A stretch of 37,138 nt of DNA from Candidatus Hydrothermota bacterium (GTDB lineage: Bacteria; Hydrothermota; Hydrothermia; UBA1063): assembly GCA_003644895.1 (NCBI GenBank), contig QNDO01000001.1, positions 1-37,138 on the forward strand, given 5' to 3'. This document shows, one piece after another, positions 11,211 to 29,176 of this stretch (position 1 is the first letter of the stretch; each line of letters starts with the position of its first letter). The position numbers and the translations under genes were made by a program. Below the pieces are notes generated by a model. That model worked only from the letters and a program-made list of their open reading frames with translations, was not told where the DNA came from and made no database searches.

Positions 11211-11894
11211 TCATTCTCCTACTATTTTACCATCTCTTAGTTTGATAATTCTCTTTGCATGTTCTACTATCAACGGGTCATGGGTAGAGAAAACGAAGGT
11301 AACACCCTTTTCGGCATTGAGCTTCCTCATGAGTTCAACAATACTTTTTCCTGTTTCACTGTCAAGGTTTGCGGTGGGCTCATCTGCAAGAACAAATTCC
11401 GGGTCTTTAACTAAAGCCCTTGCAATTGAGACTCTCTGTTGTTCCCCACCAGAGAGCTCTAACGGTTTCATATTCCACTTGTCTGAAAGCCCAACTGCTT
11501 CCAATATGGAAAGGATTCTTTTTTCTCTCTCCTTTTTTTGAAGATTTTTATAGCGAAGTTTTAAAGCAATTTCAACGTTTTCATACACCGTAAGGACAGG
11601 AATAAGATTAAAACTCTGGAAAATAAAGCCAAAGTAATTCCTTCTTAAAAGAGCAAGTTCCTCAGGTTTTTTTGTTTGTAATTCTTCACCGTGTAATGTT
11701 ACAGATCCCCGGGTTGGTAGGTCAATACATCCCATTATATTGAGAAGGGTTGTTTTTCCCGAGCCCGAGGGGCCTACAACGGCAGTAAATTCTCCTTTAC
11801 TTATCTGGAGGTCAATGCCTCGCAAAGCTTTAACTCTATATTTTCCGGATACATAAATTTTTTCTATATCTTTAAGTTCAATTACTATCATCAT
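11211..11894 (-). CDS. ABC transporter ATP-binding protein, LolD/MacB-type
   Basis: It carries Walker A GPSGSGKTT, a Q-loop, the signature LSGGEQQR, Walker B FVLADEPT, and an H-loop STHD. The start is probably the ATGATG at 11894/11891 after GGAGG, overlapping the TetR stop. Confidence 0.9.
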   Translation of the reverse strand: MMIVIELKDIEKIYVSGKYRVKALRGIDLQISKGEFTAVVGPSGSGKTTLLNIMGCIDLPTRGSVTLHGEELQTKKPEELALLRRNYFGFIFQSFNLIPVLTVYENVEIALKLRYKNLQKKEREKRILSILEAVGLSDKWNMKPLELSGGEQQRVSIARALVKDPEFVLADEPTANLDSETGKSIVELMRKLNAEKGVTFVFSTHDPLIVEHAKRIIKLRDGKIVGE

Positions 11895-12603
11895 ACCTCC
11901 TCTCATTAAAGTATGTTTCAATGACCTCCTTGATCATTTCCGGATACCCTTTTAATCCTAAAGAACCTTTCGGTAATGCCAGGATTCTTTCCATTGAGAT
12001 TAGATAGATTTTTTTTAACTCATAGATTTTTTCAATACAGTTCTGTTTTGTGTCAGAATTAAGAATTGTCCGCGCTACATCATCACCAAAATTACCCAAA
12101 AGTCTTGCAATAAGTCTCCCTGTGTACTCGGGGTACTGAATATCAAAAATACCCTCTTTTACTCCCTGACTAATGATCTTTGAAAAAATAGAGGCACTAA
12201 TTTCCAGATTTTTCTCATTCATTTTTTGTCGAAAAATTATATTTTTATCATCGTAATAAATCTTGAGATATACGATAATTTCCTTTTTAAATTTTTCAAT
12301 TTTTACTCTGATACTTTCCTCAAGGATCTTATTCAATTTTTCAATGGCATTAAGATTACTTTCTATTATGGGAGTTAAATGGAAAACTATAAATTTACTC
12401 ATTGCATCCACGATCTCTTCGAGTATTTCCATTTTGGAATTGAAATGGTAATACAATGTACCACGAGCTATTCCAGCTTTTCTTACGATATCTTCAATTG
12501 AGGTATTTTCAAAACCGTTTTTGTAAAAGAGTTCCACGGCTACCTTAAGAATCTCATCCTTTCTCTTTCTGGCTTCTTTCAATGTTCTCTTAGTTTTCTT
12601 CAT
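11878..12603 (-). CDS. TetR/AcrR-family transcriptional regulator (cassette B)
   Basis: It has a TetR_N helix-turn-helix (ILKVAVELFYKNGFENTSIEDIVRKAGIARGTLYYHFNSK) followed by a helical ligand domain. Confidence 0.9.
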   Translation of the reverse strand: MKKTKRTLKEARKRKDEILKVAVELFYKNGFENTSIEDIVRKAGIARGTLYYHFNSKMEILEEIVDAMSKFIVFHLTPIIESNLNAIEKLNKILEESIRVKIEKFKKEIIVYLKIYYDDKNIIFRQKMNEKNLEISASIFSKIISQGVKEGIFDIQYPEYTGRLIARLLGNFGDDVARTILNSDTKQNCIEKIYELKKIYLISMERILALPKGSLGLKGYPEMIKEVIETYFNERRYDDSN

Positions 12604-23381: not shown

Positions 23382-24935
23382 ATGATACTAATAGGAGGAA
23401 TTGTAGCAGGAATCATAGTTGGTTTTGTTCTTGGTTTTTTTTATTTTAAGTTGATCCATAAGAAAAATATAGAAGAAGCTTATGGAACCAGGGAAAAAAT
23501 TATAGAAGAAGCAAGGAGAGAAGCAGCAAATATCAGAAAACAAGGTGAGATTCAAGCTAAAGATTACTGGTTTAAAGAAAGAAGAAAATTTGAAAAAGAG
23601 ACTTATGAAATAAGAAAGGAACTGGATCGAGAAAAGAAAAAACTGGAGGAAAAAGAAAATCAGCTTGAGAAAAAGAATGAGGCCCTGTCTCGAAAAGAGA
23701 GGGATTTGAAAAATTTTGAAATGGAACTTAAAGAAAGGGAGAGGGTCCTAAAAGCCAAAGAGGAAAGACTGAATGAACTCCTAGAGGAGGAGGCCAGGAG
23801 ACTAGAAGAAGTTGCAAGACTCACGAGAGAGGAGGCCAAACAAGAATTACTCCGAAGTCTGGAACAGCAAGCTAGATATGAAGCTGCTCAGCTGATATAT
23901 AGAATTAGAGAGGAAGCTAAGGAAAAGGCAGAAAAAGAAGCAAGGGAAATAGTTGTTCAGGCAATACAACGGGTAGCAACGCCTCTAGTTCAGGAAAATA
24001 CCATCACTGTGGTTCCCATTCCTTCTGATGATCTAAAAGGTAGGATTATTGGAAGGGAGGGTAGGAATATAAGAGCCTTTGAATCTGCAACTGGTGTGGA
24101 AGTTATAATTGATGATACACCTGAAGCAGTTATACTTTCTTCCTTCGACCCCATCAGAAGGGAAAAAGCCAAACTGGCCCTGGAAAAATTAATACAGGAT
24201 GGAAGAATTCACCCTGCAAGAATAGAAGAAGTAGTCCAGAAGGTTGAAGAGGAATTCGAAGATCACTTAAAGGTTATTGGTGAAGAAGCTATGGTAGAGC
24301 TGGGATTGGGAGGATTTCATGTAGAATTATTAAGGCTTGTGGGGAAAATGAAATTCAGGACCAGTTATGGCCAAAATCTTCTTCAACACTCCAAGGAGGT
24401 TGCATACATAGCTGGGATTATGGCAGGAGAACTCGGACTTTCTGTTGAACTTGCGAGGAGGGCTGGACTTCTACATGATATTGGAAAAACTGCAGATGAA
24501 AGTTACGAGGGCCCTCACGCCCTAGTAGGTGCACAGATCGCCAAGAAATTTGGAGAAAACGACCTTATAGTAAATGCTATAGCCTCGCATCACGGTGAGG
24601 AGGATGCCAAGAGCCCCATTGCAGTACTTGTGCAGGCAGCAGATGCCATTTCTGGCGCAAGACCTGGTGCACGAAGGGAGAGCATAGAGGCCTATATAAA
24701 GAGAATCGAAAAGCTAGAGGAAATCGCTGCAGGATATACTGGTGTTGAAAAGGCTTATGCCCTCCAGGCCGGAAGGGAGATAAGAATAATAGTGGAAGCC
24801 GACAAGGTAAGTGACACAGATGCCTTCAATCTAGCAAAACAAATAGCACAAAAAATAGAAGAGGAAATAGACTTCCCCGGTCAGATTAAGGTTACAGTTA
24901 TCAGAGAGACAAGAGCAGTGGAGTATGCCAGGTGA
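23382..24935 (+). CDS. rny: Ribonuclease Y
   Basis: It has an N-terminal TM, a long Glu/Lys coiled coil, a KH domain ([15 protein letters not shown]) and an HD domain ([10 protein letters not shown]...LLHDIGK). Confidence 0.95.
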
Positions 24936-25714
24936 TAAGGATTCTCTTCATCGGGGATGTTGTTGGAAAGCCGGGAAGAAGAGTAGTTAGAAGTTTACTA
25001 CCCGAGATTAAAGAACGTTATAAGATTGATTTTACCATTGCCAACGGCGAGAATGCAGCGGGGGGTGCAGGTCTCACCAGAAAGGTTGCGGATGAGCTAC
25101 ATAATTATGGCATTAATGTCCTGACAAGCGGTAACCACATTTGGGATAATAGAGATATTTTCAGTTTTATAGACAGTGTTGATTGGGTATTGAGGCCCTA
25201 CAATTATCCTCCTGAAGCACCAGGGAGGGGGTATGGAGTTTTCGAATCCAGAAGGGGGATACATATTGCTGTTATTAACATAATGGGGAGACTTTTCACA
25301 GGTTATTTTGACTGTCCCTTCCGGGCTATTGAAAATGTGTTGGAGAAAGACCTTCCCGAAATCAAAATTATAGATTTCCATGCAGAGACCACGGCTGAGA
25401 AACAGTCTTTTGCTTTTTATGTAGATGGAAGAGTTACTGCTGTAATAGGTACACATACTCATGTCCAAACTTCAGATGCGAGAATTTTACCTAAGGGGAC
25501 TGCTTATATTACTGATGTGGGGATGACGGGGGGACTTAACAGTGTAATAGGAGTTAAAAAAGAACTTTATATCAAACGATTTAAGACATTATTACCCGTT
25601 GCGTTTGAACCATCAAAGGAGAGATTGGGACTTGAAGGGGTTGTTCTTTCTCTGGAGGAGGCTTCTGGTAAGGTGATAGATATATTTTCCATAAGGGAAC
25701 TCTTGGATGAATAA
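24932..25714 (+). CDS. ymdB: YmdB-like (TIGR00282-type) metallophosphoesterase
   Basis: It has the blocks [38 protein letters not shown], and [23 protein letters not shown]. It has a GTGA overlap with rny, and the rny-ymdB pairing is conserved. Confidence 0.9.
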
Positions 25715-26825: not shown

Positions 26826-27533
26826 ATGAGTGTGAGATACAGGAGACAGGAGATTATCAAGGGATTTGATCAAAATAAACTAAAAAAAGCACATGTGGCT
26901 GTTCTAGGTTCAGGTGGACTTGGGAGTGCAGCTCTTTATTATCTGGCTGCAGCTGGAGTGGGGAAAATTAGTTTTTACGATGCAGATAAGGTCGAGGAGT
27001 CAAATCTGAATAGACAAATCTTACATTTTAGTTCTGACATCGGCAGATACAAAGTGGATTCCGCTCTCTCTAAATTAAAAGACCTTAATCCTGAAATCGA
27101 GATAGAAGGGTATTCAATAAAGATTGATTCTGAGAGTATAAAAGAAATAGGAAAACCCGACATAATAGTAGATGCTCTGGATAACTTCAAAACCAGATTT
27201 ATTCTTAACGATTACGCTGTGAAGAATAGAGTTCCTTTTTTACATGCTGCGGTAGAATCCTTGGAGGGGAGACTCTCTTTTGTAGTGCCATTTGAAACAC
27301 CCTGTTTGAGATGTATCTACAAAGCTCTCCCTCCGAGGAGAGAGATTCCAGTACTCGGAGCAACAGCAGGAATACTTGGAACCATGGAAGCCATAGAAGT
27401 GATAAAATTTTTAACTGGGATAGGGAATACATTGAAAGGTCGCATGGCGATATTCAATTTCAAAACATGGGATGTTAGAATAATATATATGGAGAGGGAC
27501 CCCCATTGTGATATTTGTGGTATGCCCCGCTAA
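26826..27533 (+). CDS. ThiF/MoeB/HesA-family E1-like adenylyltransferase
   Basis: It has the blocks RY.RQ, a nucleotide loop GSGGLGSAALYYLAAAGVG, D.D.VE.SNLNRQ, and two C-x2-C pairs (CLRC, CDIC). Confidence 0.85.
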   Translation: MSVRYRRQEIIKGFDQNKLKKAHVAVLGSGGLGSAALYYLAAAGVGKISFYDADKVEESNLNRQILHFSSDIGRYKVDSALSKLKDLNPEIEIEGYSIKIDSESIKEIGKPDIIVDALDNFKTRFILNDYAVKNRVPFLHAAVESLEGRLSFVVPFETPCLRCIYKALPPRREIPVLGATAGILGTMEAIEVIKFLTGIGNTLKGRMAIFNFKTWDVRIIYMERDPHCDICGMPR

Positions 27534-27565: not shown

Positions 27566-27594
27566 TTGACATTTCGATAACACATAAGTATAAT
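27566..27594 (+). promoter_or_regulatory. Consensus sigma-70 promoter (TTGACA-17-TATAAT) feeding the small-ORF locus
   Basis: TTGACA lies at 27566-27571 and TATAAT at 27589-27594. The predicted start at about 27601 is 2 nt before the left arm of the 13-bp inverted repeat. Confidence 0.7.
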
Positions 27595-27602
27595 AACACT
27601 GT

Positions 27603-27615
27603 GAGGGCGCCGGTA
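27603..27615. repeat. Left arm GAGGGCGCCGGTA of a perfect 13-bp long-range inverted repeat
   Basis: This is the exact reverse complement of 27826-27838. It is GC-rich in an AT-rich spacer. Confidence 0.9.
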
Positions 27616-27647
27616 GAAGTGAAGGGTTTCTAAAAAGGAGGTGTATT

Positions 27648-27788
27648 ATGTGGCAAGTATGGATTAGTTTCATAATTTCATTAATACTGTTCATTGTAGG
27701 ACTTGTTCAGCATGTTAATATAATTTACTGGCTGGGCTTTCTCATAGTTGCCATTTTGACTCTCTGGACAGCCCTTACCAAAAAGTAA
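27648..27788 (+). CDS. 46-aa two-TM small membrane protein (hypothetical)
   Basis: My own translation gives MWQVWISFIISLILFIVGLVQHVNIIYWLGFLIVAILTLWTALTKK. A strong AAGGAGGTG SD lies 6 nt upstream. It is too short for the ORF track. Confidence 0.6.
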   Translation: MWQVWISFIISLILFIVGLVQHVNIIYWLGFLIVAILTLWTALTKK

Positions 27789-27825
27789 TTTTTGAGAATT
27801 TAGTTCCCAGAGAATTTTCCTCCCA

Positions 27826-27838
27826 TACCGGCGCCCTC
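27826..27838. repeat. Right arm TACCGGCGCCCTC of the 13-bp inverted repeat, followed by TTTAAATTTT
   Basis: This is the exact reverse complement of 27603-27615, 210 nt away. Confidence 0.9.
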
Positions 27839-27881
27839 TTTAAATTTTGAGTATTTTTATCTTCTTCATTATACTATTTTC

Positions 27882-28571
27882 ATGCCTCATACCAACCTCA
27901 AAATCGCCATTGATGGACCCGCAGGATCTGGAAAAAGTACCACAGCAAAACTTGTTGCGAAAGCTTTAGGCCTTCTTCCCATCGATACAGGTGCCATGTA
28001 TAGGGCTGTAGCCCTAAAGGTTCTAAGAGAGAAAATTGACCCTCATGATGAAGAGAAAGTGGTGGAGATTGCAGGAAAGGTAAATATAGAGCAAAAACTT
28101 GAGAATGGAGAAATTCATACATATCTAGACGGTGAGGATGTATCCACTGCCATCAGAACGCCCGAAGTAAACAACACTGTTTCTATAATCTCTGCATATC
28201 CCGGCGTAAGGAAAAAGATGGTGGAATTACAACGGAAATTGGCAAAAGCAGGAGGAGTTGTGCTGGAAGGAAGAGATATTGGAACTGTTGTTTTACCTGA
28301 TGCAGACTTGAAGGTTTATATGATAGCATCTCTTGAGGAAAGAGTCAGGAGAAGGTTGAAGGAGTTAAAGGAAAAGGGCATGGATGTGAGTCTTGAGGAT
28401 GTAAAGCAGGAGATTCTTATGAGGGACGAAATGGACTCAAAAAGAGAATACTCCCCCTTGAAAATTCCAGAAGATGCTTTTATACTGGATACCACCAATC
28501 TTACGGTGGAAGAACAGGTAGAAAAAATTCTAAAGGAGGTAGAAAGGCGCTTCGGCCTAAAGAGGAGATGA
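27882..28571 (+). CDS. cmk: Cytidylate kinase
   Basis: It has the blocks IAIDGPAGSGKST.AK.VA..LG....DTGAMYRA, EGRDIGTVV.PDA..K.Y..AS.E.R..RR, and RD..D..R..SPL. Confidence 0.93.
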   Translation: MPHTNLKIAIDGPAGSGKSTTAKLVAKALGLLPIDTGAMYRAVALKVLREKIDPHDEEKVVEIAGKVNIEQKLENGEIHTYLDGEDVSTAIRTPEVNNTVSIISAYPGVRKKMVELQRKLAKAGGVVLEGRDIGTVVLPDADLKVYMIASLEERVRRRLKELKEKGMDVSLEDVKQEILMRDEMDSKREYSPLKIPEDAFILDTTNLTVEEQVEKILKEVERRFGLKRR

Positions 28572-29176
28572 GTTTCAAATGGAAACTCGCAAGGATATTA
28601 TTATATTTACCTTTCAAAATATTGTTCCGTTATAAAATTATTGGCAAGAAAAATATTCCACTAAGAGGACCGGTAATAATTTGTCCCAATCATACCTCTT
28701 TCTGGGATCCACCACTGGTAGGATGGGCTTCACCCAGAGAAGTGTATTTTTTAGCCAAAAAAGAACTTTTCACCACGTATAAGATTTTTGGAAAATTTAT
28801 AGAGTTTTACAACTCTATTCCTATAGACAGGAGCAGTTCTACTCAAGCTGTAAAAAAGGCAGTGGAGTTATTAAATGAAGGAAAAGCAGTGGTTATCTTT
28901 CCCGAGGGCACAAGAAACAGAACTAAAAATAAATTGTTGTTACCTCTTAAAAAGGGAGCGACAATGATTGCACTTAAAGCTAAAGCTCCAGTGATTCCTG
29001 CTTTCCTTTTTGAGAGCAAGGGAAGCTACTGGGATTGGATTCTGGGTAAGAGGGAGCTTAAAATAAGGTTCGGGAAGCCAATTTTTACCTATAATCTTGA
29101 ATACAATAAAGAGAATATAAATTATCTTACCAGAGAGCTGGAAGTAAGAATGAGGGAGTTGTATGCCAGAGGTTAA
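28568..29176 (+). CDS. plsC: 1-acyl-sn-glycerol-3-phosphate acyltransferase family protein
   Basis: It has the H-x4-D motif (PNHTSFWDP), the FPEGTR block, and an N-terminal hydrophobic segment. It has an ATGA overlap with cmk. Confidence 0.85.
   Translation: MSFKWKLARILLYLPFKILFRYKIIGKKNIPLRGPVIICPNHTSFWDPPLVGWASPREVYFLAKKELFTTYKIFGKFIEFYNSIPIDRSSSTQAVKKAVELLNEGKAVVIFPEGTRNRTKNKLLLPLKKGATMIALKAKAPVIPAFLFESKGSYWDWILGKRELKIRFGKPIFTYNLEYNKENINYLTRELEVRMRELYARG

Follow-up and report, generated by a model that had tools for sequence, protein, structure and literature searches.

Why should the gene of a protein of only 46 amino acids (aa) be bracketed by two sequences that are complementary to each other? 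The question is raised by a small locus in contig QNDO01000001.1 of a Candidatus Hydrothermota bacterium (assembly GCA_003644895.1), of which positions 1 to 37,138 were analysed (hereafter the window). The locus lies between a thiF-like gene and cmk, and all parts of it are on the plus strand. It begins with a sigma-70-type promoter, TTGACA-17-TATAAT (27566-27594), which matches the consensus at 12 of 12 positions. The predicted transcription start, placed at about 27601 from the position of the promoter, would be 2 nucleotides (nt) before the sequence GAGGGCGCCGGTA (27603-27615), whose exact reverse complement, TACCGGCGCCCTC, follows at 27826-27838. Between these two arms there is an open reading frame (ORF; 27648-27788) for a 46-aa peptide with two predicted transmembrane helices. 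The original prediction, made from this sequence alone, was that a small-protein gene is transcribed into an RNA that closes on itself through a 13-bp helix joining its two ends, and this is supported by the conservation and covariation of the arms and by the codon-like conservation of the ORF, described below. Comparison of related sequences leaves us with little doubt that the helix is a selected RNA structure. That it closes the messenger of the small protein as a long-range helix between the untranslated regions (UTRs) at its 5' and 3' ends, and that it thereby stabilises this messenger, is the interpretation that we favour with moderate confidence.

An inverted repeat of 13 nt does not in itself call for an explanation. 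Perfect inverted repeats of at least 13 nt with arms within 600 nt of each other were found three times in the window, as compared with a mean of 0.57 in dinucleotide shuffles, and in DNA as AT-rich as this such a repeat is unremarkable. It is the base composition of the arms that is unusual: not one of 300 dinucleotide shuffles contained a perfect inverted repeat with nine or more G/C, and the other two perfect repeats of the window, both inside long ORFs, have G+C contents of 29% and 38% as opposed to the 77% found here. Moreover, a search of the window that allowed up to two mismatches found GAGGGCGCCGGTA and its reverse complement and no other copy (0.08 expected). Downstream of the locus there is a perfect 14-nt AT-rich inverted repeat (GAAAGGTAAATATA / TATATTTACCTTTC), with one arm in cmk (28075-28088) and the other in plsC (28602-28615), 513 nt apart, which is probably a chance occurrence.

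Folding of the predicted 248-nt transcript gave a minimum free energy (MFE) of -76.3 kcal/mol (z = -4.0), and the 13-bp end helix was present in the MFE as well as in the centroid structure. The calculated free energy of the helix duplex is -28.2 kcal/mol at 37 °C and -16.3 kcal/mol at 70 °C. When the variants found in relatives were folded, the end helix appeared in the MFE structure of every one of them at both 37 and 70 °C, with duplex energies between -24.6 and -46.2 kcal/mol at 37 °C. A search of Rfam found no match at the gathering score anywhere in the window, including tRNAs and riboswitches, and around the locus only chance-level matches (E ≥ 0.79) were obtained at E ≤ 10.

The closest relatives of the locus form, together with it, a clade of nine distinct sequences (the window clade), all syntenic, with a single copy on each contig. 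The promoter, both arms, the Shine-Dalgarno (SD) site, the ORF and the promoter block of cmk are kept throughout this clade, while the spacers between the 5' arm and the SD site and between the stop codon and the 3' arm vary and contain insertions and deletions. The contiguous helix is 11-13 bp long. Two loci (L011 and L012), with the arms GAGGGCGTCGGCA and TGCCGGCGCCCTC, show one compensatory change from U-A to C-G and one change from C-G to U-G, and a second U-G is found in L101. The prediction that related sequences would keep the arms is thus borne out, and with compensatory and wobble changes.

The helix is not limited to the window clade. An end-to-end helix brackets a gene of the same protein family in six divergent clades, which differ in genomic context and have, between them, three unrelated arm sequences; the peptides of the other clades are 43-61% identical to that of the window. 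In L090 the promoter TTGACA-17-TAAGAT (10/12) is followed after 6 nt by an 18-bp helix with two G-U pairs (GGGGCGCTGGAAGGTTGA / TCAATCTTCCGGCGCCCC). L110 has the promoter TTGACA-18-TAGAAT (11/12), a gap of 8 nt, a 13-bp helix (AGGGCGCTGGAGA / TCTCCAGCGCCCT) and TTTTTCT after the 3' arm. The same promoter sequence with the same spacing and score is found in L122/L123, with a gap of 4 nt, a 15-bp helix (TGGGCGCTGGAGATA / TATCTCCAGCGCCCA) and GTTTTTATTTT after the 3' arm. In L116-L121 the promoter-like sequence TTGACA-17-TAATCT stands 4 nt before an interrupted helix of about 20 bp, in which GAGCACCGGGG..GGGGAGAGGCC pairs with GGCCTCTCCCCCGGTGCCTC and whose arms are of unrelated sequence. A third unrelated sequence makes up the 16-21-bp helices of L104, L106 and L107 (GTGCTCGAGGCCGGGGGATG / CATCCCCCGGCCTCGAGCAC and variants), where no promoter was seen. 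Arms can be wholly different even between close relatives: the peptides of L110 and L104 share 85% identity, but the arms of the two loci are unrelated. Over all six clades the number of contiguous pairs between the 5' and 3' sides is 11-21, as against 6-11 in 11 relatives that lack the helix.

The position of the helix relative to the promoter is also similar in these loci. Five clades have a promoter of their own, and in four of them the scan called it at the base of the helix; in the fifth (L116) only the -35 element is convincing. The distance from the promoter end to the first pair is 8 nt in the window and in L110, 6 nt in L090 and 4 nt in L122. With 4-8 nt between the end of the -10 element and the first pair, these transcripts are predicted to have a 5' end that is paired or has no more than about two free nucleotides.

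Covariation was scored on alignments of the arms only (A4, A8); an alignment of the whole loci with MAFFT (A3) had placed the 5' arms of L090 and L110 wrongly. In the core group, whose arms are homologous in sequence, 94.9% of the cells were paired and four of the 13 pairs had changed on both sides, one of them through the series C-G, U-G, U-A and another through A-U, G-C, U-A. The covariation score of the core group was 0.261 versus 0.144 in shuffles, none of the 500 shuffles reached this value, and controls with slid register gave at most 0.139. When L104-type rows were added to include all arm types, 96.8% of the cells were paired, nine of the 13 pairs had changed on both sides and the score was 0.608 versus 0.179, counts that lean towards structure as the L104-type rows of A4 were anchored on the helix. 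Among L104, L106 and L107 the 5' arm shows a change from GTG to ATG, and this G-to-A change is accompanied by C-to-T in the 3' arm. Each of the five wobble positions has a T opposite a G, which gives G-U in RNA of the plus strand, whereas on the other strand the same positions would be A-C. All wobbles thus fit only the RNA of the coding strand, which favours an RNA structure over a repeat acting at the level of DNA.

An explanation at the DNA level would be that the arms are terminal repeats of a miniature inverted-repeat transposable element (MITE), sites at which a segment is inverted by recombination, or paired operators. The perfection of the repeat and the occurrence of the gene in different genomic contexts in different lineages could be cited for it, and so could the core GGGCGCYGG, which is common to the arms of four clades and is kept beyond the needs of pairing, while the pairs that flank it covary; pairing alone does not explain the conservation of the core. 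We nevertheless regard a DNA-level explanation as highly improbable. Every locus has two arm copies, no dispersed ones were seen in the 37-kb window or in related loci, and the flanks, CTGT and TTTA, are not a target-site duplication; the MITE alternative that the original prediction had listed is not supported. The promoter, conserved and at the same spacing in four clades, lies outside the repeat, hence what is conserved extends beyond the arms. The other alternative, an invertible segment, is not supported either: all distinct sequences have a single orientation, and no recombinase was among the Pfam domains reported for the neighbouring genes. Operators would be hard to reconcile with arms that are wholly different between close relatives, or with an arm that is coding sequence, as it is in L104-L107. 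In general, the arms change yet stay complementary, and their T:G mismatches are tolerable only in the sense of plus-strand RNA.

If the helix is an RNA structure, what takes its place in family members that do not have it? We tested 11 such members; L095 (P0005) was not judged, its 5' UTR being covered by a run of N. In the 11 the longest complement between the 5' and 3' sides was 6-11 nt; these stretches are rich in AU or GU and mostly no longer than expected by chance. Eight helix-less genes are standalone, with longest complements of 6-10 nt (chance level in the seven tested), and in seven of the eight (L091, L103, L108, L109, L112, L113 and L115) a GC-rich hairpin with a T-run follows just past the stop codon; in the remaining one, L105, there is a GC hairpin but no T-run. 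A further five helix-less genes stand 12-13 nt behind pgk. A hairpin terminator after the ORF was found in none of the helix-bearing loci that were scanned or read. Because helix-bearing genes are without a hairpin and standalone helix-less genes have one, the long-range helix and the ordinary terminator hairpin appear, on this comparative evidence, to substitute for one another. The hairpins of L103, L105 and L108 contain GC-rich words (GGGGGGCGCCGC...GCGGCGCCCCCC) similar to those of the long-range arms (GGGCGCCGG), and this likeness may be a sign that one of the two arose from the other. Insertion of the gene into the loop of an older terminator hairpin was considered and rejected as a general origin: in four contexts the arms are conserved jointly with a promoter that lies outside them.

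This pattern invites the suggestion that the helix is primarily an intrinsic terminator with a giant loop, or an insulator, which stops both transcription from the strong promoter of the small gene and read-through from thiF before cmk. The likeness to an intrinsic terminator consists of a GC-rich stem, of T-runs following it in the window clade, L110 and L122, and of a position where helix-less relatives carry an ordinary terminator. There is no other terminator after the ORF, and the terminator scan found none for thiF upstream. Downstream, a separate promoter-like site for cmk, TTGAGT-17-TATACT (27847-27875, 9/12), begins 9 nt past the 3' arm in a block that is kept in all window-clade relatives; it bounds the small-gene element and is not part of it. 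On the minus strand, TTGGTA-16-TATAAT (27895-27868, 10/12) overlaps this site and the first codons of cmk. The T-rich run TTTAAATTTT (27839-27848) could be a terminator tail, and it also lies just upstream of the cmk promoter.

We think it quite unlikely, however, that termination is what the helix is for. The loop is about 210 nt long and contains an ORF, as opposed to the 3-8 nt of intrinsic terminators, and we know of no terminator with a loop of this length that is under translation. The U-tract is interrupted in the window (UUUAAAUUUU, doubling as the region upstream of the cmk -35 element) and absent from three of the six clades (L090, L104-L107 and L116). In L106 and L107 the SD site and ATG of the next gene, radical-SAM-like, follow only about 20 nt past the 3' arm. 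Hairpin-plus-T-run sites are no commoner in the 37-kb window than in shuffled sequence, and canonical intrinsic terminators seem to be uncommon in the source genome. A terminator or insulator role towards cmk, which the original prediction had also proposed, is hypothetical.

L104, L106 and L107 differ from the other helix-bearing loci in that the helix brackets one cistron within a longer RNA (TetR gene, small ORF, radical-SAM gene), and the 5' arm is formed by the last six codons and the stop codon of the TetR-family gene. Could the helix then be a processing stalk, which is cut by RNase III or a similar enzyme and releases the small cistron from longer transcripts in the way rRNA precursors are processed? 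The perfect 16-21-bp helices of this operonic clade would suit such a role, and in the window, where thiF has no terminator, read-through RNA would carry an internal helix as well. It is true that in rRNA precursors, too, the flanks of a functional RNA pair into a bracketing helix, but here the bracketed RNA is an mRNA and the helices are much shorter. The 11-13-bp helices of the window clade are short for RNase III, and where a promoter stands at the foot of the helix cutting would be unnecessary. An RNase III gene was not found in the window, although no search aimed at it was made. As a general account, processing seems improbable to us.

The product of the gene was characterised by homology searches. 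The first search, which was word-indexed, found only three close homologues, 89-96% identical and syntenic over rny, ymdB, queG, the thiF-like gene, the small ORF, cmk, plsC, ispH and rpsA. In the window clade the ratio of nonsynonymous to synonymous substitution rates (dN/dS) of the ORF is 0.06-0.12, with dS reaching 0.5-1.6. The conservation of the ORF is thus codon-like, therefore we take it to be a real protein-coding gene under purifying selection, in line with what was first proposed for it. An exhaustive hidden Markov model search and two profile searches brought the family to about 30 clusters, with lengths of 46-68 aa and the signature MWQxW..F...G...W..L.KK. Two members, L113 (384-683) and L115 (1501-1794), are tandem duplications of the two-helix unit, 97-99 aa long, and score 56.9 and 47.5 bits against the Pfam family PF03779, over its gathering threshold of 31.5. 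Six of eight single-unit members scanned match positions 1-50 of the same model below the threshold (E about 0.003-0.01), and PF03779 proteins are, conversely, weak matches of the family profile. The window peptide itself falls below the PF03779 threshold, its best Pfam match being YiaAB (E = 0.008). Searches of Pfam, NCBIfam and PADLOC with the lone 46-aa peptide gave sub-threshold matches only, and tblastn found no match in plasmids or phages. Since the duplicated members pass the PF03779 threshold and most single units match half of the model, the window peptide is best described as a putative single-unit, two-helix relative of the SPW-repeat (PF03779) membrane proteins. The tandem duplications suggest that the single units may act as dimers. 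The literature that we found on SPW repeats offers a predicted structure and nothing on function.

The genomic surroundings of the family vary. By Cmk sequence the closest reference genomes are metagenome-assembled genomes of candidate division WOR-3 (62-63% identity), in which cmk follows rplS and the small gene (P0010) is elsewhere in the assembly, after a gene that we presume to be pgk from its likeness to pgk-linked loci. In five loci (L089, L092, L096, L098 and L102) 12-13 nt separate the SPW-like gene from pgk, with which it is evidently co-transcribed; these products of 54-67 aa have an acidic C-terminal tail. In L092-L094 a restriction-enzyme-like domain, RE_XcyI (720 aa), either precedes the pgk product or forms a fusion with it. 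Upstream of the small gene, the ThiF-family gene (235 aa) is whole in the window and in other contigs but split into 131 and 104 aa in L001, L003 and L006 (2175-2881, corresponding to window positions 26826-27533), by a frameshift or an assembly error. L010 (388-2103) and L014 (325-2041) carry, between queG and the thiF-like gene, a block of three genes for an ArsR-type helix-turn-helix protein, an ArsP_1 permease and a thioredoxin-like protein, which the window does not have.

A small hydrophobic product, a strong promoter and paired mRNA ends are also features of type I toxins, and the locus could be imagined to work in the same manner: the end helix would hold the mRNA inert while the pyrimidine tract of the 3' UTR covers the SD site, trimming of the 3' end would activate synthesis of a membrane-damaging peptide, and an antisense RNA would be the antitoxin. 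End pairing of this sort occurs in the hok and aapA mRNAs (PMC6733600), and distant anti-SD-like sequences are able to repress expression (PMC12697547). The tract in question, TTTTCCTCCC (27815-27824), is situated just inside the 3' arm and includes CCTCC (27819-27823); in relatives it reads CUUUCCUUU. The SD site AAGGAGGTG (27635-27643), as read from the sequence, is invariant in the window clade and is separated from the 5' arm by a purine-rich segment (27616-27634), variable in sequence and length, with insertions and deletions among relatives. Both CCTCC and SD, like the promoter, the arms, the ORF and the T-rich run, are where the original prediction had located them. CCUCC or its CUUUCCUUU equivalent is among the top predicted partners of the SD site in six of 11 variants folded, although the ensemble is diffuse.

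In the RNAalifold consensus structure the pyrimidine tract pairs with the purine-rich 5' UTR upstream of the SD site and so lengthens the helix, leaving the SD site unpaired with the 3' UTR. Of the suggested pairing between CCTCC and SD, what holds is that the tract is conserved in kind; the pairing itself is redirected upstream in the consensus fold, and with partners so diffuse a lock of the SD/anti-SD type is not supported. The rest of the evidence is similarly unfavourable to a toxin. The family is widely conserved and under strong purifying selection, there is one copy per contig, and in the window clade this copy is always at the same syntenic site. In five loci the gene is evidently co-transcribed with pgk, the 97-99-aa duplicates are bona fide PF03779 membrane proteins, and no matches were found in PADLOC, plasmids or phages. 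Promoter-like sites on the minus strand are weak and at non-homologous positions between clades. L090 has the minus-strand sequence TTGTAA-16-TATAGT immediately beyond the 3' arm, but this falls within the last part of a convergent gene and has no similarly placed counterpart in other clades. Synonymous sites vary freely (dS up to 1.6), which leaves little room for an overlapping RNA gene, and a dual-function small RNA, one of the alternatives first considered, is not needed to account for anything that we have seen. A toxin function is in our judgement a poor prospect.

It is instructive to compare the locus with bacterial mRNAs in which interactions between the UTRs have been described. In Bacillus subtilis hbs a 14-bp interaction that joins the 5' UTR to the 3' UTR, confirmed by compensatory mutation, controls cleavage by RNase Y and modulates stability (PMC5737220; Braun, Durand and Condon 2017). 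Both are short, monocistronic mRNAs, strongly expressed (in our case by prediction), with a strong SD site and a contiguous perfect complement of 13-14 nt between the UTRs. The hbs helix is, however, internal, with two hairpins on its 5' side and a terminator hairpin of its own following closely, whereas here, going by sequence alone, the helix is at the predicted transcript start and there is no separate terminator hairpin; the hbs pairing is also weaker (-19 versus -28 kcal/mol), and there is no sequence homology. About 2-4 kb upstream of the small gene, on the same strand, there are genes for RNase Y and YmdB (23382-25714), that for RNase Y (23382-24935) encoding 517 aa with RNase_Y_N, KH and HD domains. 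Its vicinity is of interest here, since the hbs interaction restrains this very enzyme.

In Staphylococcus aureus icaR a segment of the 3' UTR pairs with the 5' UTR of the same mRNA (PMC3868564; Ruiz de los Mozos et al. 2013). This is what the two systems share. The main helix of our locus is upstream of the SD site, which is left in the loop, whereas the icaR 3' UTR reportedly pairs with the SD region via UCCCCUG, blocking translation and inviting RNase III. The likeness to hok/Sok and aapA/IsoA (PMC6733600) consists of a small hydrophobic ORF, pairing of the 5' and 3' ends and a pyrimidine-rich element near the 3' arm; the differences are that here no antisense RNA gene is evident, that the family is conserved, single-copy and often operonic with pgk, and that sequestration of the SD site is inconsistently predicted. 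The locus is thus the same kind of device as the UTR interactions of hbs, icaR and hok/aapA, without sequence relationship to them. It differs from them in that the helix is at the predicted transcript start, that it seemingly replaces a terminator hairpin and that it is tied to one protein family with turnover of the arms.

How might such a helix work? We propose that the locus is a self-contained expression unit, in which the helix loops out about 210 nt that contain the SD site and the ORF. In the window the distance is 32 nt from the 5' arm to the ATG and 38 nt from the stop codon to the 3' arm; a ribosome at either codon would therefore not touch an arm, and the helix is compatible with translation. 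The SD site is 4 nt from the ATG (6 nt from the GGAGG core). Pairing from the first nucleotides would block decay that depends on the 5' end (RNase J, RNase E or RNase Y-type pathways), and the duplex at the 3' end would block 3' exonucleases; stem-loops at the 5' and 3' ends of mRNAs are known to protect against RNases (reviewed in PMC7509114). One helix would in this way serve both as a protective stem-loop at the 5' end and as a terminator hairpin, and the result would be a long-lived, strongly translated small message. Taken together, the consensus promoter, the perfect SD site and the closed ends look like a high-output design for a very small protein. The T-run that follows the helix in the window clade, L110 and L122 suggests that there it may also help to form the 3' end by termination. 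For the operonic clade (L104, L106, L107) we can only speculate that the internal, longer helix would first be excised by a double-strand-specific RNase.

Several observations weigh against the helix being a stabilising closure of the mRNA. The transcript start, the 3' end and the half-life are all predictions. In L104, L106 and L107 the helix is not at a primary 5' end, and as it is internal there, 5'-end protection would not be its universal role unless a processing step is added. In L116 the -10 element TAATCT matches at three of six positions and was not called by the scan, the -35 element being perfect. Pairing is not strictly maintained at the inner end of the helix, where L010, L014 and L101 have a G-A mismatch at pair 14, the innermost but one. 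Termination is not a conserved property, the T-run being present in three clades only, and the loop of about 210 nt is far beyond those of known intrinsic terminators. The anchoring of the L104-type rows in the covariation analysis, mentioned above, belongs to the same side of the balance.

Promoters with a 12/12 match are rare in the window: there are three in the whole 37 kb, and that of the small gene is one of them. The second (TTGACA-17-TATAAT, 17759-17731, minus strand) is followed after 2 nt by a 20-nt near-perfect palindrome, TTGACCGACTGGTCGGTCGA (17729-17710, minus strand), which resembles an operator, or else a hairpin at the 5' end of the putative transcript. The third (12653-12624, minus strand) is upstream of an ORF at 11878-12603.

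A bolder version of our proposal would be that the element is a portable capsule for an mRNA, in which one duplex caps the 5' end, forms or protects the 3' end, and brings the stop codon beside the ribosome-binding site. We consider this rather unlikely as it stands. If it were true, the short message would be retranslated repeatedly, and in operons the lengthened helix would be cut by a double-strand RNase to free an end-paired mini-mRNA; it would amount to a bacterial closed-loop mRNA design, kept by selection in different lineages and re-created with new arms when the gene moves.

Known bacterial mRNAs with functional end-pairing number a handful of cases (hbs, icaR, hok, aapA), each studied in one organism, and comparative support of the kind presented here (six lineages, three arm sequences, and sister genes that use hairpins) is mostly lacking for them. 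The family described in this work provides a natural series of genes with either a helix or a hairpin, which makes it possible to ask what end-pairing contributes to stability, to 3'-end formation and to translation. As to the organisms, the two-helix small membrane protein, although barely annotated, is a conserved and probably highly expressed component of uncultured WOR-3-related bacteria.

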